DNA of 64,000 nt from positions 605 through 64,604 of the forward strand of contig CACZZN010000011.1 in the NCBI GenBank assembly GCA_902785705.1, in the 5' to 3' direction. This document shows, piece after piece, positions 2,509 to 45,540 of this stretch; position 1 is the first letter of the stretch; every line of letters begins with the position of its first letter. The notes beneath the pieces were generated by a model, which was not told where the DNA came from, made no database searches, and was given only the letters and a program-made list of their open reading frames with translations. This stretch comes from an uncultured Veillonellaceae bacterium. Its GTDB lineage: Bacteria; Bacillota; Negativicutes; Selenomonadales; Selenomonadaceae. A program made the position numbers and the translations under genes.

Positions 2509-3144
2509 TCAAAATTCTGGTACCGTGGAGATATCGCTTAAGCCGTAGGATCCGAAAGCGTTCTCTATATTTTTCTCTCGGAAGTCCTTTTTTATAAATA
2601 AGCGAAATGGATTTTTGTTGGTTAAGCTTTTCAACTGGATGTAAGGAACATTTTTATCAAATTCTCGCGCGGGAAACAGGGCAAGCGCTTCTTCATAGGA
2701 TATGTTGTGGCGCTTGGCATATCTTCTGGCCTTTTGTTCCGCACTACTCTTTTGATGAAATCGTCTGTAATTGGCATATCCCTTGAGTACGGAGGGGATT
2801 GGGCGGATCGATGTGATATGGACGTAATCCGCCAGTCGAGCGAGACGATCCCTGACAGCAAATTCTTGTAGTGAGGATTCTTCCATTGCGAATAAGCGAA
2901 GTCGATAACCAAATGCACAGGTGGGCAAGCCTTTGGACTTCTCTGCTGACAACGGTTTACGGCAATTGTTTTTTCCGGCGGAGAGTTCTTGATAGTCGGG
3001 AAAAGAAATCCCGATAGGGACATGTCCATGTTCGTCCTGATGGGATGCAAAGCCAAGATGAAGTTGCTGGTATACCTTCGACCAGATGAAATAAGCCGGT
3101 ACTTCTGCGCAGGGGAGGATGGTCAGTTCCTGATAGTATTTCAT
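2509..3144 (-). CDS. cas6f: Cas6f (Csy4) crRNA endoribonuclease
   Basis: 211 aa from ATG 3144, with an AAGGAGT SD just upstream. The 265-aa ORF-track version overlaps cas7f and is too long. MKYYQELTILP...IGISFPDY...FRLFIKK...GSYGLS..VPEF is collinear with remembered Csy4 features. Confidence 0.85.
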   Translation of the reverse strand: MKYYQELTILPCAEVPAYFIWSKVYQQLHLGFASHQDEHGHVPIGISFPDYQELSAGKNNCRKPLSAEKSKGLPTCAFGYRLRLFAMEESSLQEFAVRDRLARLADYVHITSIRPIPSVLKGYANYRRFHQKSSAEQKARRYAKRHNISYEEALALFPAREFDKNVPYIQLKSLTNKNPFRLFIKKDFREKNIENAFGSYGLSDISTVPEF

Positions 3145-3148
3145 AACA

Positions 3149-4180
3149 TTACTCCTTGCTGCTCTGGCCGAAAACGCCGCCGCGAACCAGAACCGCCATG
3201 ACATAATGTTCCTCATTCTCGTTTGCAAGAGATTCTCCCAATGCATAGCGGTCAAACAGGGAATAAAAATCCACTTTGTCTTTTGGATTGCGGAACGCTT
3301 TGCCAAGGTTAGTCACAGCTCCGTAGGGTTCAATGGCAATTGGGCCGATGCCGCTGGCTGTCTCGTACTCTGGGTACCAGGTATCAATAGTGCGGATGGC
3401 ATTGTTCAATTTCTGGGAGTGCATGGCGGCAATTTCATTGACTTGATACAGCACCTTGCTCTTGTCCCCACGCCCTTTGTCGAAGACCAGTTCCTCACTG
3501 GGATAGACCTCCTGCCCTTCACCCAATAAGGCATAGGTTTCGATATCTAATAACAGATAACGTTTTCGTCCACTAAGGGCGGATGCGATTCGACTGGCCA
3601 GTTCTTCTGTTTTTTCATTTTTTTCAAAGTCTTTCAAGGAAAATTCATAAGCATTAAAAACCCATGATTTTTTTTCCTGTTCATTGCTGACATCTGTGAT
3701 TCTGACCTCAATTTTTTCCGCACCCAGTCGATTTCGCCATAGATATCTGGCATTGGCAAGGTTTATCGCATAGCGCCGCCCCAATTCGTGGAACTGTGTT
3801 CTTTCTATATATCGTTTAGCGATTTCCGTATACTTCTGGCTGAATCCGGCATGATTGCAAGCAGAAGGAGTTTCGACACCACTCAATACTTTGAGGGAGA
3901 ATTTCAGTTTCAGGGTGTTGTGGTTCATGGATAGGGCACAAGCGTCAACAAGTTGTAGATTCGGTTTTTCAACTTCGGCATTCAATTTGGCGGGATCGTT
4001 TTTTACCGTATCTTTCAGGCGATTGGAAATCGTGCCACGTACAGACTTTTCCACTAATTTCAGTGGTTCTGCCGGTTCATCTCTGTTCTCCCATGTAGTT
4101 CCATACATATAGCCGTCGGATGCAACTAATTTTTTTTCGAATGCCAATACAGATGCTATGCCAGTTTCTTTCTTTGCCAT
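3149..4180 (-). CDS. cas7f: Cas7f (Csy3) Cascade backbone subunit
   Basis: 343 aa. SVLAFEKKL, EKSVRGTISNRLK, NLANARYLWRNRLGAE, HSQKLNNAIRTIDTWYP, GPIAIEPYGAVT and VRGGVFG blocks are near-collinear with P. aeruginosa Csy3 as remembered. Confidence 0.9.
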   Translation of the reverse strand: MAKKETGIASVLAFEKKLVASDGYMYGTTWENRDEPAEPLKLVEKSVRGTISNRLKDTVKNDPAKLNAEVEKPNLQLVDACALSMNHNTLKLKFSLKVLSGVETPSACNHAGFSQKYTEIAKRYIERTQFHELGRRYAINLANARYLWRNRLGAEKIEVRITDVSNEQEKKSWVFNAYEFSLKDFEKNEKTEELASRIASALSGRKRYLLLDIETYALLGEGQEVYPSEELVFDKGRGDKSKVLYQVNEIAAMHSQKLNNAIRTIDTWYPEYETASGIGPIAIEPYGAVTNLGKAFRNPKDKVDFYSLFDRYALGESLANENEEHYVMAVLVRGGVFGQSSKE

Positions 4181-4192
4181 AATAAAACCTCC

Positions 4193-5104
4193 TCAATGCT
4201 GTTTGGTATTCCATTGATTGCTGTTTTTGCACAGATAGAGTCCAAGTTGGGGAATTGTCTGATAGTTCCACATGATCTCTTCCAAGTCACGGAAGTGGAA
4301 GGGCATTTTAAATTCGCATATCGTGACCACGGATTCCGCAAAATGATGTTCGTAGTCGTAGGAGCGTTGGTGTCGTACCCGCATCGGCCCTGAGATGTCT
4401 TTGAACCCCACGGCCAGCGGAATGAGCCAACCCGGTTGCTGTTTCTGCGGACTCCATTGGGGGATAGCATCTGCCCCTGTGTGTTCTTTCGGGGTAAATC
4501 TGACGGAAAGTACGTCCAACAACTGATCCAAGGTATCTTTTCCCTCCGGCAAAGGCTCTTTCAGAAGGTCGCTGCGGTCAATAATGACGTATCCGGGCAT
4601 CAGACGGCGGACTGCATGGGCAATAGTCTGCGGTTCGTCTTCGTCTACGTACAATATCTGTAAGGTACTTATTTTTTCAATGTCGCCACCGGCAACTTTT
4701 AATTGGGGAAGAATTTCCCGGACCGCACCTAAAAACATATTATCGTTTTCTACGGCAAGATTGTTGAGTTCTATGAGCAGGGAAACGACCAGATGGCAGC
4801 GGGGTTCTTCAATAAAAGGGGGGCGTTCAAATTCTTTTCCCTTTTTTTTCAGAGGATTTGAGGTTCCGATGATCGAATACCTATAGTCATACACCCCTTT
4901 GTACACTTGAACATTGCAGTCATGACAAGAGACTGCAACCTTGCAGAGGTCGATTTCGGGGAAACCGTCGGCCTGGAGTTTTCGCTGCAAGGCGTGAACA
5001 AAGCCAAGCCAGGCCGTCATAGCAGGAAATCCGATGATATAGGAACCGGACAGGGCGTTGGCATTATGAACATGAAGTTTTGGTATCAGCAAGAAAGGCC
5101 TCAT
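4193..5104 (-). CDS. cas5f: Cas5f (Csy2)
   Basis: 303 aa. The N-terminus LLIPKLHVHNANALS...GFPAMTAWLGFVHALQRKL resembles Csy2. ATGA start/stop overlap with cas8f. Confidence 0.85.
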   Translation of the reverse strand: MRPFLLIPKLHVHNANALSGSYIIGFPAMTAWLGFVHALQRKLQADGFPEIDLCKVAVSCHDCNVQVYKGVYDYRYSIIGTSNPLKKKGKEFERPPFIEEPRCHLVVSLLIELNNLAVENDNMFLGAVREILPQLKVAGGDIEKISTLQILYVDEDEPQTIAHAVRRLMPGYVIIDRSDLLKEPLPEGKDTLDQLLDVLSVRFTPKEHTGADAIPQWSPQKQQPGWLIPLAVGFKDISGPMRVRHQRSYDYEHHFAESVVTICEFKMPFHFRDLEEIMWNYQTIPQLGLYLCKNSNQWNTKQH

Positions 5105-6267
5105 AATTGCACCTCCTTGGTGTCCAGCAGGATATCGTGGATTCTGTGGCGTAGGGCATTGAATTCCGCGTCGCCCAGGTCAAAGGCATCCTTTTTCAGG
5201 AGTTCCTGATAGGTGTGAAGCATCCATTCGGCAAACTCTCTTGAAATTTCTTTGCTCCATGTGTCATCGGATTGGCGCTCTTCCTCATAGAGACTGTCCA
5301 GCCAGATTTTTTGATGACGGGATATGCGGCAGGTTTCCGCATCGGACCATCCACTTTCCAAACTTCGGAGCCGAAATACGCGCATAAGGATCCGGTCGAT
5401 GATGGCATCCTCGGCATCTCTTGTATCCCGGCGGATGTCCTTGTTATTCCGCTGTACGCCATAAAGATAATGCAGGTTATAGAACAGGGAGGAATAGCGT
5501 TTGGTTCGCAGCGATTGGAAGAAATTCCGTTTGGGCGGAAGGATTTCCCGCCGGGGAAGGTGCGGAGGAAAGGCGGGGATTAGGTAGGCTCTGCCGCCAT
5601 TCATGTTATTGAGTGTAGATATATTCTGCGGCTTGGTCCCACCAAAACTGCTCTCACTCAGATCAAAAACCTTCCTGTAGGTCGTGAGATATTGATCGCT
5701 TTTTTTATCCTGGGATGCCCTTGCTTGCGCTTCCATGTTACGAAGCCGCTTCCTCAGCTCCAACATCAGGGAAGAAGCGGGAAGAACGGAGAGAAGATGG
5801 TATTGATTCTCTCCGATGGGGAAAAAGACTTGCCGGATTCGCTCATCCGTCGCATCCGGAATATAATCTTCCTTTACATTCAAAATATTATTACGAACCA
5901 CTGTATAGTCGATTTGCAACGAAGAGAGATCCTGACGAAGTTTTTCCGTATTTTCCTTGAAGTGGGAAAGAACCGTTTTTTTATCTTCCAGCTCCAGCAA
6001 AAGGAATCGGGAGATAGCGAGAAACGCAGCCGATGATACGGTGATATCTTTGGTGCAGGCAACCGCATCCGTGGTGATATATCCGTCGAGGGTGTCGTTC
6101 TTTACGCTATGGGATATCTTTACGTCTGCGGACGGATGGGAAAAGCGGCCAACATAGAAAGACGTCGTGCATTTTGAAGCATTCAGGGATGTTGCCATGA
6201 GCCATTCTTCTACATTTTTTCCTTTTTTGGCCGCCTCTTCGGTCATATAGGACATTATGATATTCAA
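5101..6267 (-). CDS. cas8f: Cas8f (Csy1) large subunit
   Basis: About 390-aa ORF in the canonical slot between cas2-3 and cas5f. No diagnostic motif recognised. Start chosen as TTG 6267, 7 nt after GGAGG (6279-6275). Alternatives: ATG 6256 or the ORF-track start 6291. Confidence 0.75.
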   Translation of the reverse strand: MNIIMSYMTEEAAKKGKNVEEWLMATSLNASKCTTSFYVGRFSHPSADVKISHSVKNDTLDGYITTDAVACTKDITVSSAAFLAISRFLLLELEDKKTVLSHFKENTEKLRQDLSSLQIDYTVVRNNILNVKEDYIPDATDERIRQVFFPIGENQYHLLSVLPASSLMLELRKRLRNMEAQARASQDKKSDQYLTTYRKVFDLSESSFGGTKPQNISTLNNMNGGRAYLIPAFPPHLPRREILPPKRNFFQSLRTKRYSSLFYNLHYLYGVQRNNKDIRRDTRDAEDAIIDRILMRVFRLRSLESGWSDAETCRISRHQKIWLDSLYEEERQSDDTWSKEISREFAEWMLHTYQELLKKDAFDLGDAEFNALRHRIHDILLDTKEVQL

Positions 6268-6301
6268 GGTTCTCCCTCCTTGAGACTGCAATCATATTTG
6301 C

Positions 6302-6485
6302 ACCTGAATCCGTGAAACTGGATGGATGTATGATGTACTTGCTATGTCCGCCCCCTTGGGGGCGGGGAACCATCGAAGATGGTGGTGGGGGTGACGATTT
6401 TGACACATTGCCCCCCACCACCGCCGATGGCGATCCCCCGCCCCCAAAGGGGGACGGACAGTGTTCGAGTTTCACGGATTCAGGT
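6302..6485. repeat. ~185-bp imperfect palindrome rich in G and C runs (predicted cas8f leader hairpin)
   Basis: Perfect 17-bp terminal arms: ACCTGAATCCGTGAAAC (6302-6318) and GTTTCACGGATTCAGGT (6469-6485). Inner arms: GTCCGCCCCCTTGGGGGCGGGGA vs TCCCCCGCCCCCAAAGGGGGACGGAC, and GGTGGTGGGGG (6381-6391) vs CCCCCCACCACC (6411-6422). Confidence 0.85.
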
Positions 6486-6492
6486 TGTATAT

Positions 6493-6521
6493 AAGATACC
6501 ACGATAGCAGAAAATAGTCAA
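6493..6521 (-). promoter_or_regulatory. Putative sigma70 promoter TTGACT-N14-TGG-TATCTT (extended -10) pointing into the palindrome and cas8f
   Basis: - strand TTGACT at 6521-6516, TGG at 6501-6499, TATCTT at 6498-6493. The predicted transcription start (~6486) coincides with the 5' base of the palindrome. Confidence 0.45.
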
Positions 6522-6523
6522 TA

Positions 6524-6544
6524 ATAATTTTTTTAATATCAAGG
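6524..6544 (-). promoter_or_regulatory. Predicted self-target of the mini-CRISPR guide (protospacer 6542->6524 plus CC PAM 6544-6543)
   Basis: - strand CC|TTGATATTAAAAAAATTAT is 17/19 identical to the psi-spacer. Mismatches are only at positions 12 and 18. The site lies 2 bp from the -35 TTGACT. Confidence 0.5.
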
Positions 6545-6546
6545 AT

Positions 6547-6621
6547 ATAATATGCCGCCTGTCCGGCGGCTAAAAAAATTTCTTTAATATCAATTTCTAA
6601 GCCGCCTGTTCGGCGGAGGTA
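6547..6621 (-). CRISPR. Degenerate single-spacer mini-CRISPR (psiR1 - 19-nt psi-spacer - psiR2), CreA/CreR-like
   Basis: psiR1 (6621->6594) TACCTCCGCCGAACAGGCGGCTTAGAAA is 21/28 identical to the array repeat. psiR2 (6574->6547) TTTAGCCGCCGGACAGGCGGCATATTAT is 19/28 identical. Both keep the CCGCC/GGCGG stem. The spacer is TTGATATTAAAGAAATTTT. Confidence 0.65.
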
Positions 6622-6627
6622 TTCTGC

Positions 6628-6656
6628 TTGCGACAAAAGAATTTTTGATGTATACT
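6628..6656 (+). promoter_or_regulatory. Putative promoter TTGCGA-17-TATACT for the + strand small RNA
   Basis: TTGCGA 6628-6633, 17-nt spacer, TATACT 6651-6656. Confidence 0.45.
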
Positions 6657-6662
6657 GATAGC

Positions 6663-6759
6663 AAAGAGGGGTGCCGCCTAGCGGTTTCGCCCTCAGATGG
6701 GATATCCTTAGATTACCCGCCTTCTAAGCTAGCAACTAGGAAAGGCGGGTTACTTTTTT
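6663..6759 (+). ncRNA. Candidate ~95-nt small RNA convergent with, and overlapping the 3' end of, the peptide gene
   Basis: Bounded by the promoter above and an intrinsic terminator: ACCCGCCTT (6715-6723) / AAGGCGGGT (6742-6750) followed by TACTTTTTT. Has an internal GAGGG...CCCUC hairpin. No plausible SD plus start codon. Confidence 0.4.
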
Positions 6760-6815
6760 ATCGTCATGAGGATCAACAAAATCAACAGCAAAGCCATGAT
6801 CAGGTTATCATCCAT
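6750..6815 (-). CDS. 21-aa hydrophobic peptide MDDNLIMALLLILLILMTIKK (type I toxin-like)
   Basis: ATG 6815 lies 7 nt after the strong SD AAAGGAGGG. Stop TAA 6752-6750. Single predicted TM helix with a KK tail. The SD can pair in a GCCCUC/GAGGGC hairpin (6843-6822). Too short for the ORF track. Confidence 0.45.
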   Translation of the reverse strand: MDDNLIMALLLILLILMTIKK

Positions 6816-6869
6816 AGGCGAGCCCTCCTTTCGCAGTGAGGGCAAGCTCCGCCGAACGGCACCATGGAT

Positions 6870-6899
6870 ATTATAACGTGTTTATTTACATATTGACAA
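6870..6899 (-). promoter_or_regulatory. Putative promoter TTGTCA-18-TATAAT for the peptide gene; -35 lies inside the last codons of cas2-3
   Basis: - strand TTGTCA 6899-6894, TATAAT 6875-6870. The cas2-3 stop is at 6888-6886. Confidence 0.5.
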
Positions 6900-9800
6900 G
6901 AGAAGAATCTGTGAAATTGTGTTTTTGCTTATTCGGGTCATTCTTTTTCCATAAGCCTAACTGATCAGAATAAAGCAGGGTATATCGCGAACCCGCGCCA
7001 TAATACGGTATTGTAATCCTGCCGAATTTTTCGCTGAGAGATTCCATTCTTGCCTCTTCTGCTTCGGGAGGGCAGTCGGGATGCAGAGCCTGTTCCCGAA
7101 GGGACGCTATATAGTCCCGCTCCAGCCAAAGTCGTTTCTTTGCAGTAGTATCTATCATATCCGTAGCAAATTCAATATGGTAGCTATCTTCCTTAGCGAT
7201 ATACTCTCCCGTCCTTGCCCGTTCATAGAATTTGGGTTTTCGATTTCTATAGCAGAGGCATAGCGGGATTTGCGGAGTTCCATCCCGGAATGGATGGAGC
7301 ATCTGCGGGAGTCCCGTCATCCACCAATATTCCCTGAGATATCCGTGCAATGTGTCGGGGCCGACGGCAGATATATCACAGAAGTCCTGCATGACTTGAT
7401 GTTCCAAATGAATCAGGTGCTTTCCCGGTTCCAGAGGGAATGGCTTGCGGATTCTCGGAACGGCATCTACTTTCGTCAGCAGATCAGACGCGTTTACCAA
7501 GTCGTTCATATCGTGGCTATCCAACGGATACCGTTCGGATGTTTCATAGCCGGGATGACAAAAAGCCGGACTTTTGCCATCCAGTCCTTTGAGATTGTAT
7601 TGCAGGATGGCAATATTGGGAGTGGAGATATCTTCCTTGAGGTTCCGATGGCGGAGAACCCTTCCCGCCAGCTGGATGATGGAGCGGTAGGAGGATGGCT
7701 CCACCACAGCCCAGTCAAAATCATGATCCCGGCCGATTTCTTCCACGGGTGTCGAGATGACAAGAAAAAGAAGATTTTCCTCAGAGACGCTATTGATATG
7801 TGAACGGAGAACAGGATCGTCCGAAAGGATGGAAGAGGCGGCTCCTTTGCGTTTTAATACCCGGTCCAGGTAAGTTTCCTGCTCATGGCGCAGCAGCAGC
7901 GTCTGACGACTGTGATAGGTCATCAGACGTACGGCATAGCCTGCCCAATCCGCATGCAGGAGAAACAGGCTCAGGTATACGCAGGGATCGATGTTTGCCA
8001 TGCGGATCAGACCAAAGGATATTTTCTTCCCGGATACGGTGTCGATGAAACAGTGGGCGTTATGCAGGGAAATGGCGGTTTTCTGTATTTGTGCGAAATA
8101 CAGAAGCCTCTGCTGCGATTCCTCCACATTTTCTTCTTTAAGGATCGGTACAAGACATGCTTTTCGCTTGACCATTTGCCGGTCAAGTTTCATGATTCGC
8201 TTATCTACGAACTCCCGGTGAAGTTTTTTGTATTCTTGTCCGAAAGTTTCTGAGTTTCCCGAAATCGGACAAACTGCCGTTCTGAATTCATCGCACCAAG
8301 CACAGAGGATTTGCGCATGCTGTTGAGTGAATCCGTTGTAGAGAACACGACCTTCCCAATAGGCGCAAAACAGTCCTTCTGCCAGGTCAGGCGGGATGGT
8401 AGCAGACGAAATTGCTACATTTCTTCCCAACATACCGGCTAAATGGACAAGATGGGCGATGGGAATCAGGTCGTTTGCATTGAAATCGTCCACTTCGTCG
8501 ATTACAAGGTCGGATGACATCAACCGCAGGAAAGGCAGCATGTATTTGCCTCCCCGAGTGCTTTCCGTCGCGCGGATGAGATGGTCAATGGTTGCAACGA
8601 GTACCGGTTTATAGAGAAAGGCCCGATTTTTCTTTGTGAAGCCGGGCTTGTTGTTGTCAAAGAAAATGTCGAGAAAGCTGTCCGAACTATCCAGTGCATA
8701 GTGAATGCCACTATCCAGCAAATCCTCCTGCCCTTCTTCCCCAAAAACGGAATCCTCCTGTGTCTGTTGGTACAGTTCTTGTACCGCGGAATCGCCAATC
8801 AGGACGGCCAGTTCGTCCTCGTCCAGGCCGATGCGCTGACGATATTCGGTTCCTGTCTGCAGAGTCAGGGAACGTAACCCCAAGGCAAGGACGTAGCGAA
8901 GGGATTTTCCGTCTTTTGATACAGCTTGCATGATTTTGGCATTAGCGATGGTTTTCCCGCAACCCGTACTTGCCATGTTCACGATGAACCAGCCATTTTC
9001 CGCGTCCGTGTCCTGTGCCTCACGGAAATAGCGGATGGTCTCCACTGCGGTATCCTGCCAAAGGAAGGGTTTGGGACTTTTCTTCCTCAAAGAACGGATG
9101 TCTCTGGCGAACTCCATCCGTTCGGCCAGTTGAGGCAGACGATGCGCGATTTTCAAAGCCTGTGCCGTCACACGTACCAGATGTTCATCCAGTTTCTGCC
9201 CGCCACCGGATTTGGCGTACAGATCGCAGTCCGTTTTCCAATTCGGGTCGGCAGGATTGGAAGAGGAAGAGACGTAATAATCCGCCATCATCATGCTCAG
9301 ACGCGCGTAATGCAGAACAGGACGCAGGGACGGAGTATCAAGAAGCCGCAGGATGTGTTCCCGTTCCTCCGATAGCCTTTGTGCCCACTTCTTCACCTGC
9401 TTGCTCCAAGGGTCGGATTTCTTCAGGAGCCCACGGGCGAATTTGACCGGGACGGAGGTGTCCTTCTGATATCCCCAATTGCTTTCTATGACTGACAGTA
9501 CGGAGGAAAGGGAGTTCTTTGCGTTCCCCTTGTACTTCGTGGCAATCTCCTTGTCTAAGACAGGCATACGGTGGTGGGTGAGGATGAGCCAGCAGATGAG
9601 ACTTGCAATAGGAGGGAAATGGGAGAAGGGTTCATCCATCACATCGGGAAGTTTCTTCAGGATCTGCTTCTCATCGAAGGATTGATTTTGCAAACTTTCC
9701 ATCCATATCCTGTCATCCTCTCCGGATTCCGTGGCTGCAATCAGAGCAGAAATCAATTTGCAGGAGATCCATTCGTGTCGGAAAGGGTCCTTCCCTTTGG

Positions 9801-10218
9801 ACGGTGCTGTCAGCATTTTCTGAAAGGCATGATTCGCTTTCCCCCAGTCATGCAGCAAAGAAGCCATGGCCGTCAATGCCTTGATGGCTGGTAGATATAC
9901 CCAGTGGTTTTCCCACTCGCCATGACGAATGTTTTTCTTTGTGGAGTGGACGGGTACGGTTCCCTGCTCGTTGAACTTGTCCCGATTTCCCACGATCCAC
10001 AAAAGTTCGCTCCGATTCCTGGAGCGAATCCAGTGGCAAGCGACCGCCGTATTTTTTGTGGCGGATTTTCGTAAGAGCATTTTCACGGTTTGCAGACCAT
10101 CTTCCGTAATGATGGTTTTCCATGTATCGTTACCGATGCGATCGGCGAAGGTATCCAGAATTTTTCTGGTAGACTGGAGAGATTTCTTTTCGCTGCGGCT
10201 CGTAAACAGGACCATCAT
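6886..10218 (-). CDS. cas3: Cas2-Cas3 fusion (type I-F Cas2/3 nuclease-helicase)
   Basis: 1110 aa. N-terminal ~95-aa Cas2-like module, HD region (LLHDWGKANHAFQ), Walker A (NMASTGCGKT) and a DEVDD helicase box. ATGA overlap with cas1. Confidence 0.9.
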   Translation of the reverse strand: MMVLFTSRSEKKSLQSTRKILDTFADRIGNDTWKTIITEDGLQTVKMLLRKSATKNTAVACHWIRSRNRSELLWIVGNRDKFNEQGTVPVHSTKKNIRHGEWENHWVYLPAIKALTAMASLLHDWGKANHAFQKMLTAPSKGKDPFRHEWISCKLISALIAATESGEDDRIWMESLQNQSFDEKQILKKLPDVMDEPFSHFPPIASLICWLILTHHRMPVLDKEIATKYKGNAKNSLSSVLSVIESNWGYQKDTSVPVKFARGLLKKSDPWSKQVKKWAQRLSEEREHILRLLDTPSLRPVLHYARLSMMMADYYVSSSSNPADPNWKTDCDLYAKSGGGQKLDEHLVRVTAQALKIAHRLPQLAERMEFARDIRSLRKKSPKPFLWQDTAVETIRYFREAQDTDAENGWFIVNMASTGCGKTIANAKIMQAVSKDGKSLRYVLALGLRSLTLQTGTEYRQRIGLDEDELAVLIGDSAVQELYQQTQEDSVFGEEGQEDLLDSGIHYALDSSDSFLDIFFDNNKPGFTKKNRAFLYKPVLVATIDHLIRATESTRGGKYMLPFLRLMSSDLVIDEVDDFNANDLIPIAHLVHLAGMLGRNVAISSATIPPDLAEGLFCAYWEGRVLYNGFTQQHAQILCAWCDEFRTAVCPISGNSETFGQEYKKLHREFVDKRIMKLDRQMVKRKACLVPILKEENVEESQQRLLYFAQIQKTAISLHNAHCFIDTVSGKKISFGLIRMANIDPCVYLSLFLLHADWAGYAVRLMTYHSRQTLLLRHEQETYLDRVLKRKGAASSILSDDPVLRSHINSVSEENLLFLVISTPVEEIGRDHDFDWAVVEPSSYRSIIQLAGRVLRHRNLKEDISTPNIAILQYNLKGLDGKSPAFCHPGYETSERYPLDSHDMNDLVNASDLLTKVDAVPRIRKPFPLEPGKHLIHLEHQVMQDFCDISAVGPDTLHGYLREYWWMTGLPQMLHPFRDGTPQIPLCLCYRNRKPKFYERARTGEYIAKEDSYHIEFATDMIDTTAKKRLWLERDYIASLREQALHPDCPPEAEEARMESLSEKFGRITIPYYGAGSRYTLLYSDQLGLWKKNDPNKQKHNFTDSSLVNM

Positions 10219-11186
10219 ATCTCTTCACGCTCCTTGGGCATGGAAAGACTTTGTTCCTTGATTTTTTCGAAAATAAAATCAAGCGCTTTGTGATCTGTGA
10301 ATTTTTGTAGACATATCTGTCGAAATTCCTGGCTCGTTCGGCCATATCGGGCAGAGATAAAAGCCCATGGCAAAACAATAGCATCTTTGATTAGGTCTGC
10401 GGCATCAAACACAAGTGCTCCACGTCTGGTTTTTCCGTGCATCAGAGCAAATCCATGTGGAATGCCCAATACCCAAAGCGCCGTTGCTCCCAATCCGTAG
10501 GCCAGATAATTCCCATGGTTCAAGAAACGATTTGCATCATCATGCGCATTCGGGTTTCTTTTGAAGTCTGGAGTGTCTGTTCTGCCAGCGGTGTAATGGT
10601 AAAGACTTTTGGTGAATTGGGCTTCGTCGCTTAGCAGTTCGGTGACATGACGTGCTTGTTCGATGCGGTTTCGGAATCGTTGGATGGCCTGCTCGATTTC
10701 CTGATCGTCCGGATAGAGACCTTCCTGTTGGAGTTCTCTGTCTTTGCCCCAGGTCTGAAGAAAATAGTCGCAACGGGCACGCTGTAATTGCTTTGCGGCG
10801 AAAAGCCGCTTTTGCTCATCGAACCAAAAAGAAAGCCAGCCTTGGACGTATTCTGTGGGCCTGTATTCGCTTTGTGGGGTAATCCACTCAACTTCTGTAC
10901 CGGAAAAGAGCGGCGTGCCGCCACCGCCACAGAATCCGACCAAGACGCCGGCGGCTGCCAGCATACGCATGGCAGCCTGCGTGACGGAAGTCCCTGTTCC
11001 GAGGAGTATGACCGTCGTATTTCCAATGGGAATGTTCCAATAGAGATTTTCTTTTTTTGCTTCTGTCAGATATAGGATTCGTCCATCTTTTTGCATGACA
11101 CGGCATTTTTCCAAGTAGTAGATATTGGCACGTTTAGAATGCAGGATAGTTTTCAAATCAGATGGCGTTATGGTTGTTTTTTTCAT
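10215..11186 (-). CDS. cas1: Cas1 integrase (I-F subtype)
   Basis: 323 aa. Size, position and blocks such as TVILLGTGTSVTQAAMRMLA and NRFLNHGNYLAYG fit Cas1. AAGGTG SD upstream. Confidence 0.9.
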   Translation of the reverse strand: MKKTTITPSDLKTILHSKRANIYYLEKCRVMQKDGRILYLTEAKKENLYWNIPIGNTTVILLGTGTSVTQAAMRMLAAAGVLVGFCGGGGTPLFSGTEVEWITPQSEYRPTEYVQGWLSFWFDEQKRLFAAKQLQRARCDYFLQTWGKDRELQQEGLYPDDQEIEQAIQRFRNRIEQARHVTELLSDEAQFTKSLYHYTAGRTDTPDFKRNPNAHDDANRFLNHGNYLAYGLGATALWVLGIPHGFALMHGKTRRGALVFDAADLIKDAIVLPWAFISARYGRTSQEFRQICLQKFTDHKALDFIFEKIKEQSLSMPKEREEI

Positions 11187-24758: not shown

Positions 24759-24844
24759 TGGTGGGCAGGGATGGATTCGAACCATCGTAGCCGTAAGGCG
24801 ACGGATTTACAGTCCGTTCCCTTTAACCACTCGGGCACCTACCC
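24759..24844 (-). tRNA. tRNA-Tyr (GTA)
   Basis: 86 nt. GGGTAGG/CCTGCCC acceptor stem, anticodon loop CTGTAAA, long variable arm, GGTTCGAATCC T-loop, encoded CCA. Confidence 0.93.
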
Positions 24845-24850
24845 ACATCA

Positions 24851-24928
24851 TGGTGACCCAGGAGGGACTCGAACCCCCGACCCTTTGATTCGTAGTCAAA
24901 TACTCTAATCCAGCTGAGCTACTGGGCC
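24851..24928 (-). tRNA. tRNA-Arg (ACG)
   Basis: 78 nt. Anticodon loop CTACGAA, GGTTCGAGTCC T-loop, CCA. Confidence 0.93.
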
Positions 24929-24953
24929 ATGATATGAAAACTTTATGCAATTG

Positions 24954-25030
24954 TGGTGGGCCCACTTGGACTCGAACCAAGGACCGACCGGTTATGAGCC
25001 GGTTGCTCTAACCAACTGAGCTATAGGCCC
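24954..25030 (-). tRNA. tRNA with CAT anticodon (Met, or lysidine-modified Ile2)
   Basis: 77 nt. Anticodon loop CTCATAA, GGTTCGAGTCC T-loop, CCA. The body resembles ileX-type tRNAs, but this cannot be decided from sequence alone. Confidence 0.9.
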
Positions 25031-25068
25031 ATAAATATCAATCCGGCTGACCGGATGCATAAACAGAA

Positions 25069-25143
25069 TGGAGCGGAAAACGAGGCTCGAACTCGCGACC
25101 CCCACCTTGGCAAGGTGGTGCTCTACCACTGAGCTATTTCCGC
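25069..25143 (-). tRNA. tRNA-Gly (GCC), copy 1
   Basis: 75 nt. Anticodon loop TTGCCAA, AGTTCGAGCCT T-loop, CCA. Confidence 0.93.
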
Positions 25144-25147
25144 GACA

Positions 25148-25222
25148 TGGAGCGGAAAACGAGGCTCGAACTCGCGACCCCCACCTTGGCAAGGTGGTGC
25201 TCTACCACTGAGCTATTTCCGC
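25148..25222 (-). tRNA. tRNA-Gly (GCC), copy 2 (identical tandem copy)
   Basis: Sequence identical to copy 1, 79 nt upstream of it. Confidence 0.93.
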
Positions 25223-43132: not shown

Positions 43133-43221
<89 letters not shown>

Positions 43222-43222
43222 C

Positions 43223-43311
43223 GGAGTGGTACTCAAGAGGCTGAAGAGGACGGTTTGCTAAATCGTTAGAGTCGCAAGGCTGCGAGAGTTCGAATCTCTC
43301 CCACTCCGCCA
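43223..43311 (+). tRNA. tRNA-Ser (GCT)
   Basis: 89 nt. Anticodon loop TTGCTAA, long variable arm, AGTTCGAATCT T-loop, CCA. Followed by a terminator hairpin at 43325-43361. Confidence 0.93.
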
Positions 43312-45401: not shown

Positions 45402-45540
45402 CAGGACATGCCTGACAAACGCCATAGGGTATATTTTGCCTATGGCAAAATTTGAACAATTGCGTTATGTCAGGACAAGCCTGACGAAACGCCATAGGGT
45501 ATATTTTGCCTATGGCAAAATTTGAACAATTGCGTTATAA
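45402..45540 (+). repeat. Tandem 69/70-bp duplication carrying palindromic operator-like sites and the glgB promoter
   Basis: Unit CAGGACA[T/A]GCCTGAC(G)AAACGCCATAGGGTATATTTTGCCTATGGCAAAATTTGAACAATTGCGTTAT occurs twice (45402-45470 and 45471-45540). Only the second unit ends in TATAAT. Confidence 0.9.

Follow-up and report, generated by a model that had tools for sequence, protein, structure and literature searches.

Why is one junction of an otherwise closely packed type I-F cas operon stretched to several hundred nucleotides? The question is posed by a CRISPR locus in a 64-kb stretch of DNA from an uncultured Veillonellaceae bacterium (GenBank assembly GCA_902785705.1, contig CACZZN010000011.1, positions 605 to 64,604), hereafter called the window, in which 618 nt separate cas2-3 from cas8f (csy1), whereas the remaining junctions of the operon are either 4-nt overlaps or gaps of 4 to 12 nt. 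An earlier reading of the same DNA (the original prediction) had singled out this oversized gap as one composite cassette in which a guide, its target, a toxin-like peptide, an antisense RNA, and a structured leader interlock. The disparity in length is real, and all five elements could be located where they had been placed; however, their origins appear to be three and separate. We consider it probable that the gap is a mosaic of elements with separate histories, namely, an autoregulatory mini-CRISPR, a cassette resembling a type I toxin-antitoxin system, and a miniature inverted-repeat transposable element (MITE), a small nonautonomous transposon. The relative type I-F loci with which the window was compared are designated below by L-numbers (L083, L111, and so on).

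A mini-CRISPR matched to the promoter of the Cascade genes

On the minus strand of the gap, a degenerate repeat, psiR1 (TACCTCCGCCGAACAGGCGGCTTAGAAA, 6594-6621), is identical at 21 of 28 positions to the repeat of the CRISPR array (GTTATCCGCCGCATAGGCGGTTTAGAAA) and keeps the Cas6f hairpin and 5′ handle intact, with a CCGCC-N5-GGCGG stem and the complete 8-nt handle CTTAGAAA. It was matched by the Rfam model CRISPR-DR4 at 28 bits, the remaining Rfam hits at gathering and permissive thresholds being noise, and its stem carries a compensatory C-G to U-A change between lineages. It is followed on the same strand by a 19-nt psi-spacer (TTGATATTAAAGAAATTTT, 6575-6593) and by a second repeat, psiR2 (6547-6574), which retains the hairpin, is degenerate in its 3′ part, and has a T-rich tail after it that gives a terminator-like score. 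The original prediction had put the target of this guide directly after psiR2, at the promoter of the Cascade genes, and this is where we find it: a CC protospacer-adjacent motif (PAM; 6544-6543) precedes the protospacer TTGATATTAAAAAAATTAT (6542-6524), the two together occupying 6524-6544 on the minus strand, and the protospacer matches the psi-spacer at 17 of 19 positions, with mismatches at positions 12 and 18. The −35 element of the promoter of the cas8f-csy2-csy3-cas6f operon (TTGACT-17-TGTATCTT, 6493-6521, minus strand) starts 3 nt past the protospacer. This target is the sole strong match to CC plus the psi-spacer within the window. At 10258 on the plus strand, at the cas1/cas2-3 junction, CC is followed by TTGATTTTTTCG, which matches the psi-spacer seed at 7 of 7 positions if position 6 is ignored; a seed-only match of this kind lies within chance expectation, which we estimate at ~0.5 per window.

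The same layout was found in six lineages with six different psi-spacers, each matching its own target beside a TTGAC motif that is conserved in the relatives 19 to 23 nt from the protospacer start, and the mismatches fall at position 6, 12, or 18. With x marking a difference between spacer and target, the pairs read TTGGTTTTTTTATTTTG in L083, TTAGTxTTTTTATTTT in L089, TCTATxAAATTTGTGGT in L001, TCTATxAATTTxGAA in L008, and GTAGTxATGTTxTGAA in L039, so that in these five relatives every x stands at position 6 or 12. Type I-F Cascade leaves every sixth base unpaired. Since these are the bases that Cascade skips, the placement of the mismatches marks the psi-spacer as a genuine Cascade guide. 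In relatives that lack the MITE, the targeted promoter leads through a leader of ~30 nt straight to cas8f, without a mini-toxin gene, and the arrangement is therefore of the CreR (autorepression) kind. A mini-open reading frame (ORF) toxin downstream of the target, in the style of Pseudomonas aeruginosa CreT, was considered and rejected, as the sole ATG there lacks a Shine-Dalgarno (SD) sequence and the AGGAGG read through is the SD sequence of cas8f.

Taken together, these comparisons lend good support to the identification of the mini-array as an autoregulatory element of the CreR/CreA type (for the CreR concept, see Liu et al., 10.1101/2023.03.10.532045). Cas6f would cut at psiR1 and psiR2 to yield a short CRISPR RNA (crRNA)-like guide consisting of the 8-nt handle, the 19-nt spacer, and a hairpin, and a Csy complex loaded with this psi guide would bind the CC-flanked site at 6542-6524. 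The R-loop would be too short to license cutting by Cas2-3 yet would abut the −35 element of the cas8f promoter, and the effector would thereby repress its own operon until crRNAs compete for the Cas proteins or anti-CRISPRs act. The proposal in the original prediction that the Csy proteins throttle their own operon thus stands on the presence of a mini-CRISPR and a PAM-flanked partial target, on the covariation of spacer and target, and on mismatches where Cascade does not pair. The design has been tested experimentally in type I-F systems (10.1101/2023.03.03.530964; PMC10097628), and the published type I-F regulatory mini-arrays and CreA guides likewise have spacers of ~20 nt and lie in the same intergenic region (10.1101/2023.03.03.530964; PMC10097628; 10.64898/2026.06.02.729485).

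A long gap at this junction is itself common in type I-F and nothing unusual: the cas2-3/cas8f gap measures 120 to 1,500 nt in 53 of 84 sampled loci. The original prediction had proposed a survey of cas2-3/cas8f gaps longer than 300 bp; in the sample examined here, a repeat-like hairpin followed by the CTTAGAAA handle was present in 35 of the 53, and no mini-ORF analogous to the hydrophobic, SD-preceded one described below was found in any of the 53 other long gaps. The hairpin and handle stand on the strand opposite cas8f in Proteobacteria (L010, L017, L045, and about 25 other loci) and on the same strand as cas8f in Negativicutes. In L018 (Selenomonas ruminantium HD4, 300-520), an array of three repeats with 32-nt spacers comes after a fragment of a transposase gene and lies directly upstream of the cas8f promoter; it may be an ordinary small array at the site where others carry a regulatory mini-array.

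A strongly conserved peptide cassette

Beyond psiR1, toward cas2-3, the minus strand carries a putative promoter (TTGTCA-18-TATAAT, 6870-6899) with 11 of 12 consensus bases, followed by a predicted 47-nt 5′ untranslated region (UTR; 6816-6862) with AAGGAGGG before the ATG, and by a 21-amino-acid (aa) ORF, MDDNLIMALLLILLILMTIKK (6750-6815; ATG at 6815, stop codon at 6752-6750), whose product has an acidic N terminus, a hydrophobic core, and a KK C terminus. In every predicted fold, the SD sequence GGAGGGC is paired with GCCCUC of the 5′ UTR, and the GCCCUC/GAGGGC stem is invariant between lineages, while its loop varies. Directly 3′ of the ORF stop codon is a hairpin (6713-6749, both strands) common to two predicted convergent transcripts. 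The second of these would start at an antisense promoter on the plus strand (TTGCGA-17-TATACT, 6628-6656, 7 nt from psiR1, with a hairpin and a T-run downstream), as the original prediction had proposed, and is predicted to be an RNA of ~100 nt (6663-6762, plus strand) antisense to the final ~13 nt of the ORF and to the hairpin and 3′ UTR of the peptide mRNA; its promoter and terminator are conserved, and we regard it as a candidate antitoxin. In the window and L111, only the plus strand has a T-run at the shared hairpin (6755-6760), and in L083 the hairpin is bidirectional. Both promoters are retained among the relatives, the peptide promoter as TTGTGG-17-TATAAT in L083 and TCGACA-18-TATAAT in L111 and the antisense promoter as TTGCAA-17-TATAAT and TTGCAG-17-TATACT, respectively.

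A 3′ UTR element, CCGCUAGGCGGCACC (6670-6684, minus strand), is complementary to the start of the peptide mRNA (6849-6863), and the resulting putative 5′-3′ closure would comprise 15 pairs, of which one is compensatory (G-C to A-U in L111) and the others are invariant. In a consensus fold of five sequences, mRNA nucleotides 1 to 15 pair with nucleotides 180 to 194, past the hairpin, and the start-codon region pairs with nucleotides 164 to 177. Two further pairings were discarded. The antisense RNA is complementary to the toxin SD sequence over just 5 to 6 nt, too little for pairing in trans, and the substitutions in L111 and L083 break the antisense-strand pairs in the outer stem of the antisense 5′ hairpin while remaining G-U compatible on the sense strand. 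As a whole, the layout looks like that of a type I toxin-antitoxin system of the 3′-overlapping kind common in Bacillota, such as bsrG/SR4, txpA/RatA, and par fst/RNA II.

An 11-nt stretch of the peptide 5′ UTR (6857-6847, GUUCGGCGGAG) can also pair without a mismatch with the 5′ half of psiR1 (6618-6608), and in L083 G-U pairs preserve this complementarity, which may be a coincidence among GC-rich hairpins or an alternative pairing.

The cassette was found in all five informative relatives with >50% identity in Cas8f or at least 60% identity in Cas2-3, and these fall into three lineages: L081/L091/L114; L111, a Selenomonas sp. metagenome-assembled genome with 75% identity in Cas2-3 that is continued by the overlapping L082 sequence; and L083-L089/L112/L113, with 53 to 54% identity in Cas8f and 60 to 61% in Cas2-3. 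Relatives with ≤46% identity in Cas8f are without it, and their gaps hold a mini-array alone or nothing. Between the window and L083, the 5′ UTR is 94% identical, the ORF 86%, the hairpin 68%, and the 3′ UTR 73%, compared with 45 to 55% for the flanking promoter regions, 42% for the psi-spacer, 54% for Cas8f, and 61% for Cas2-3; by this measure, the constraint on the cassette is much stronger than that on the surrounding cas genes. Six of the codon changes in the ORF against L083 are synonymous and one is a replacement, and across the three lineages only residues 5 (L/T/S) and 12 (I/M) of the peptide vary. Because the changes are mostly synonymous and so few residues vary, there is good evidence, from codon comparison, that the peptide is translated and under selection.

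The co-conservation that the original prediction expected of its elements holds for the peptide, the antisense RNA, and the mini-CRISPR and breaks down for the structured leader. A BLAST search of the cassette against plasmids and phages gave no match, and an exact 22-mer search of viral contigs found none; an exact 21-mer search of JGI metagenomes returned two contigs only, both of the type I-F lineage already sampled. Across the plasmids, phages, viral contigs, and JGI metagenomes covered, these results point weakly to the absence of the cassette outside this junction.

A 184-nt hairpin with the hallmarks of a MITE

The structured leader is a 184-nt inverted repeat (6302-6485) at about position +1 of the cas8f transcript, with a predicted folding energy of −119.9 kcal/mol (z = −11.9). 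It is absent from L081 (93% identity in Cas8f), L091 (90% in Cas8f), and L114 (96% in Cas2-3), in which the empty site reads tatatacaaatatgattgcag / ...tatcttatatacaaatatgattgcag.... Its 18-nt terminus, ACCTGAATCCGTGAAACT, is present in 14 contigs of the viral collection, in part as ~280-nt pairs, and also bounds an element of ~1.74 kb encoding a 452-aa DDE transposase (PF13701). A full-length insertion sequence of this kind, with the PF13701 DDE transposase and the terminal repeat of the MITE, occupies 4321-6060 of L097, and the element occurs in several contigs classed as viral. Judged by its termini and its empty sites, the 184-nt hairpin is a MITE that inserted recently, in this strain only, and it is no conserved part of any cassette or circuit. 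The fifth interlocking part of the original prediction is thereby removed, and with it the candidate reading of the hairpin as a CreT-like RNA toxin or conserved leader, which we rejected on the same grounds of transposon termini and absence from the three closest relatives. Like MITEs derived from DDE-transposase insertion sequences, the element has perfect terminal inverted repeats in common with a full-length element, a small noncoding body, and presence/absence polymorphism where the site is otherwise identical; unlike typical ones, it has an ambiguous target-site duplication, the flanks ACA ... GCA offering an imperfect candidate of only 2 to 3 bp. The insertion may affect cas8f expression. 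As a practical warning, a very stable leader hairpin can be merely a MITE.

The cassette in the leader of the mini-CRISPR

In the peptide-less loci of Selenomonas and Megasphaera, transcription from a promoter just past the cas2-3 stop codon would run straight into psiR1. In the peptide-bearing lineages, the peptide promoter occupies the position of that mini-array promoter and is the sole sense-strand promoter upstream of psiR1; none of the three lineages has one in the stretch from the hairpin to psiR1, and the promoter that adjoins psiR1 is the outward-facing antisense one. The cassette therefore sits in the leader of the mini-array. Past the hairpin, there is no sense-strand U-tract in the window or L111 (two of the three lineages), and L083 has U5. 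Because the 5′ end of the mRNA pairs with sequence beyond the hairpin, there is also a slender suggestion that the functional sense RNA extends toward psiR1. Peptide mRNA and guide precursor are probably cotranscribed from the peptide promoter, which would probably then be the only promoter of the mini-CRISPR as well. That read-through of the peptide mRNA supplies the mini-CRISPR precursor was already part of the original prediction, and with no other sense promoter ahead of psiR1, it is still the best reading that we can infer.

The same prediction had the peptide promoter lying inside cas2-3, which is true of this strain and not of the ancestral arrangement. At the 3′ end of cas2-3 (~6936-6950, near 6946), a 1-nt deletion relative to L114 and L091 (ggaagaaagaatga to ggaaaaagaatga) removes the ancestral TGA frame (LWKKE*), and Cas2-3 gains 19 codons, up to 6886, across the −35 element of the peptide promoter.

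Neither the peptide promoter (6860-6900) nor the antisense promoter contains a CC PAM-plus-seed match to the psi-spacer; at 6864-6873 there is a near-match whose CC is not in register with it, and the sole psi-spacer target lies ~330 bp downstream of the peptide promoter. The hallmark of the CreTA and CrePA systems, repression of the toxin promoter by Cascade, is therefore absent. The original prediction had named CreR and CreTA as the closest precedents; the first fits, through CreR-type autoregulation, and the second does not, for want of a target at the toxin promoter.

Possible functions of the cassette

The reading that we find most likely, and think somewhat better than even, is that the cassette is a conventional, locus-stabilizing toxin-antitoxin module that lies in the leader of a CreR element. 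A strong promoter would drive an mRNA for a 21-aa membrane peptide, with the SD sequence locked in a hairpin; the RNA would most likely read past the leaky hairpin into psiR1, making peptide mRNA and guide precursor one primary transcript; and the convergent antisense RNA of ~100 nt would pair with the last part of the ORF and with the 3′ UTR, so that duplex formation and RNase III cleavage keep the peptide off. The cassette would then stabilize the cas locus postsegregationally, and Cascade DNA binding would not control it.

Several considerations weigh against this view. The architecture, covariation, conservation, coding constraint, and insertion can be read from the sequence and its comparison with relatives, whereas the transcripts, their processing, the toxicity, and the repression are all things that we infer. 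The cassette comparison rests on three lineages, and covariation in the RNA is thin, with most pairs invariant and a single compensatory change behind the 5′-3′ closure. The cassette has no Rfam match, neither the 21-aa peptide nor a 31-aa extended ORF matches a Pfam or NCBIfam family, and no homologue of a described toxin or antitoxin family was found in Pfam, NCBIfam, or Rfam; moreover, 21 aa is toward the bottom of the size range of type I toxins. L083-type loci combine the U5 after the hairpin with a perfect TATAAT 40 nt before psiR1, and therefore cotranscription may not hold everywhere. Finally, that the cassette is so highly conserved and seen exclusively at this junction may point to a closer functional tie with CRISPR than a conventional module allows.

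Such a tie is central to the addiction half of the original model, which is purely conjectural. In the form in which we weighed it, Cas6f binding and cleavage at psiR1 would determine how the toxin mRNA folds and where its 3′ end lies: with Cas6f/Csy present, the RNA would take the closed, SD-locked form or undergo antisense-directed decay, and with Cas6f/Csy lost or inhibited, the peptide would be translated and the cells killed. The likely cotranscription speaks for it, as does a cassette that is highly conserved, found only at this junction, and always accompanied by the mini-array, and so do the hok-like 5′-3′ closure between the ORF and psiR1 and the fact that CreTA and CrePA show selection for such coupling in type I-F (PMC10097628; 10.1101/2024.01.05.574328). 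The 11-nt complementarity between the 5′ UTR and psiR1, kept through G-U pairs in L083, points the same way but may be chance, since GGCGG/CCGCC motifs recur locally (we estimate ~0.07 expected before allowing for that bias). There is, in addition, no Cascade target at either cassette promoter, the antitoxin arrangement of the cassette is already complete and self-sufficient, and the comparison is again limited to three lineages. We therefore regard an integrated, Cas-sensing addiction circuit as unlikely and hold the same doubt about its specific claim that Cas6f/Csy processing of a joint peptide-guide precursor, rather than Cascade DNA binding, decides whether the peptide is translated.

Less likely still, in our judgment, is that the ORF serves only as a cis-acting leader, its terminating ribosome melting the hairpin and setting read-through into the mini-CRISPR, with the antisense RNA tuning the same step and the peptide itself harmless. 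The stop codon (6752-6750) does immediately precede the hairpin stem, the mini-array has no promoter of its own, and the 5′ UTR is the most conserved segment. However, selection acts on the amino acid sequence, synonymous changes dominating and the core and KK tail being invariant, which a pure leader does not need, and the layout is that of the 3′-overlapping type I toxin-antitoxin systems of Bacillota (PMC5961336). A last reading is that the hairpins are the remnant of a decayed CRISPR array, that the other signals are chance, and that the gap is nonfunctional; psiR2 is strongly degenerate, and the peptide belongs to no known family. This we consider highly improbable, being already contradicted by spacer and target sequences that covary across lineages with the mismatch periodicity of type I-F and by a cassette that is 84 to 94% conserved beside flanks of 45 to 55% identity; in addition, 35 of the 53 long gaps show the same architecture.

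Comparison with known systems

Regulatory mini-CRISPRs in the cas2-3/csy1 gap of type I-F and CRISPR-repressed toxins explain how Cas dosage is controlled and how loss or inhibition of the effector is punished (PMC10097628; 10.1101/2024.01.05.574328; 10.1101/2023.03.03.530964; 10.64898/2026.06.02.729485). The novelty claimed in the original prediction was accordingly overstated: publications already describe type I-F CreTA, CrePA with its protein toxin, and autoregulatory mini-arrays from the same intergenic region (PMC10097628, 10.1101/2024.01.05.574328, 10.1101/2023.03.03.530964, 10.64898/2026.06.02.729485). What is new is that a strongly conserved cassette resembling a type I toxin-antitoxin system is embedded in a type I-F CreR of a Selenomonadaceae-like clade and probably cotranscribed with it.

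The mini-array resembles those of type I-F1, such as that of P. aeruginosa YL84 (Shmakov et al., 10.1101/2023.03.03.530964), in its position between cas2-3 and cas8f, its two degenerate repeats with a spacer of ~19 to 24 nt, its CC PAM, its mismatches at every sixth position, and its target at the promoter of the Cascade operon. Unlike the YL84 mini-array, it belongs to a Selenomonadaceae-like member of the Negativicutes rather than a proteobacterium, is on the cas8f strand, and has no apparent promoter of its own adjacent to it, a cassette of ~240 nt separating promoter from psiR1. The locus thus extends the autoregulatory mini-CRISPR design to Negativicutes and gives it a different kind of passenger, with a complete type I toxin-antitoxin-like cassette replacing the short leader of the mini-array.

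With type I-F CreTA (Acinetobacter WCHA45, PMC10097628; P. aeruginosa CreTA1/2, 10.64898/2026.06.02.729485) and CrePA (Acinetobacter baylyi ADP1, 10.1101/2024.01.05.574328), the locus shares the region, a mini-CRISPR guide, a small ORF or toxin gene that follows an SD sequence within that gap, and the notion of linking a toxin to the Csy effector. In those systems, however, the toxin is downstream of the guide target and its promoter is repressed by Cascade, whereas here the candidate toxin is upstream of the guide, its promoter is without a target, and it is a 21-aa hydrophobic peptide with its own antisense RNA rather than an RNA toxin or a KilAC protein.

Type I toxin-antitoxin systems adjoining CRISPR arrays are known in Clostridium difficile (PMC5961336), and the cassette is like these and other Bacillota type I systems in its small hydrophobic peptide with a charged C terminus, its convergent overlapping transcripts, its sequestered ribosome-binding site, and the physical adjacency of CRISPR repeats. 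It differs from them in peptide length (21 versus 40 to 60 aa) and has no sequence similarity to them; unlike the C. difficile systems, which neighbor a type I-B immune array, it occupies the leader of a regulatory mini-array within a type I-F cas operon and is probably cotranscribed with the guide. If the cassette and the mini-array are merely colocated, the locus adds to C. difficile a second case of type I toxin-antitoxin systems beside CRISPR repeats, here within the operon. If they are coupled via a shared transcript, the locus would offer a new route to effector addiction or anti-anti-CRISPR defense in a compact, testable system of ~350 nt. Were the Cas6f-processing reading true, it would add a third tie between toxin and effector to those known from the CreT RNA toxins and from the CreP protein toxin and would merge a type I toxin-antitoxin system with a CreR autoregulator.

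Setting of the locus and other features of the window

The window carries a complete type I-F system with strong NCBIfam matches, consisting, on the minus strand, of cas1 (10215-11186), cas2-3 (6886-10218), cas8f/csy1 (5101-6267), csy2 (4193-5104), csy3 (3149-4180), and cas6f (about 2509-3144), together with a CRISPR array of 30 repeats (611-2379). Within the array, the repeat at 791-813 has a mutated stem, with GGTGG in place of GGCGG. Translation of cas8f is predicted to start at a TTG codon preceded by the SD sequence AGGAGGG (6265-6280, minus strand), where its 388-aa homologues begin. The Cas8f homologues are from Negativicutes (Selenomonas, Megasphaera, and Pectinatus); the closest species-level genomes are only 45% identical in Cas8f, and nearer relatives were found solely in metagenome assemblies. 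In one of these relatives, L091 (2109-3379), a truncated cas8f of 251 aa precedes a sigma-70 family gene, and the effector operon is apparently disrupted; the cassette, 100% identical to that of the window, and the mini-array are nonetheless intact. Elsewhere in the window, tRNA gene clusters are found at 24762-25222 and 43133-43308, two adjacent tRNA genes at 25072-25222 forming an exact 79-nt tandem duplication, and a 70-nt unit is present at 45402-45538 in two tandem copies that are 97% identical.

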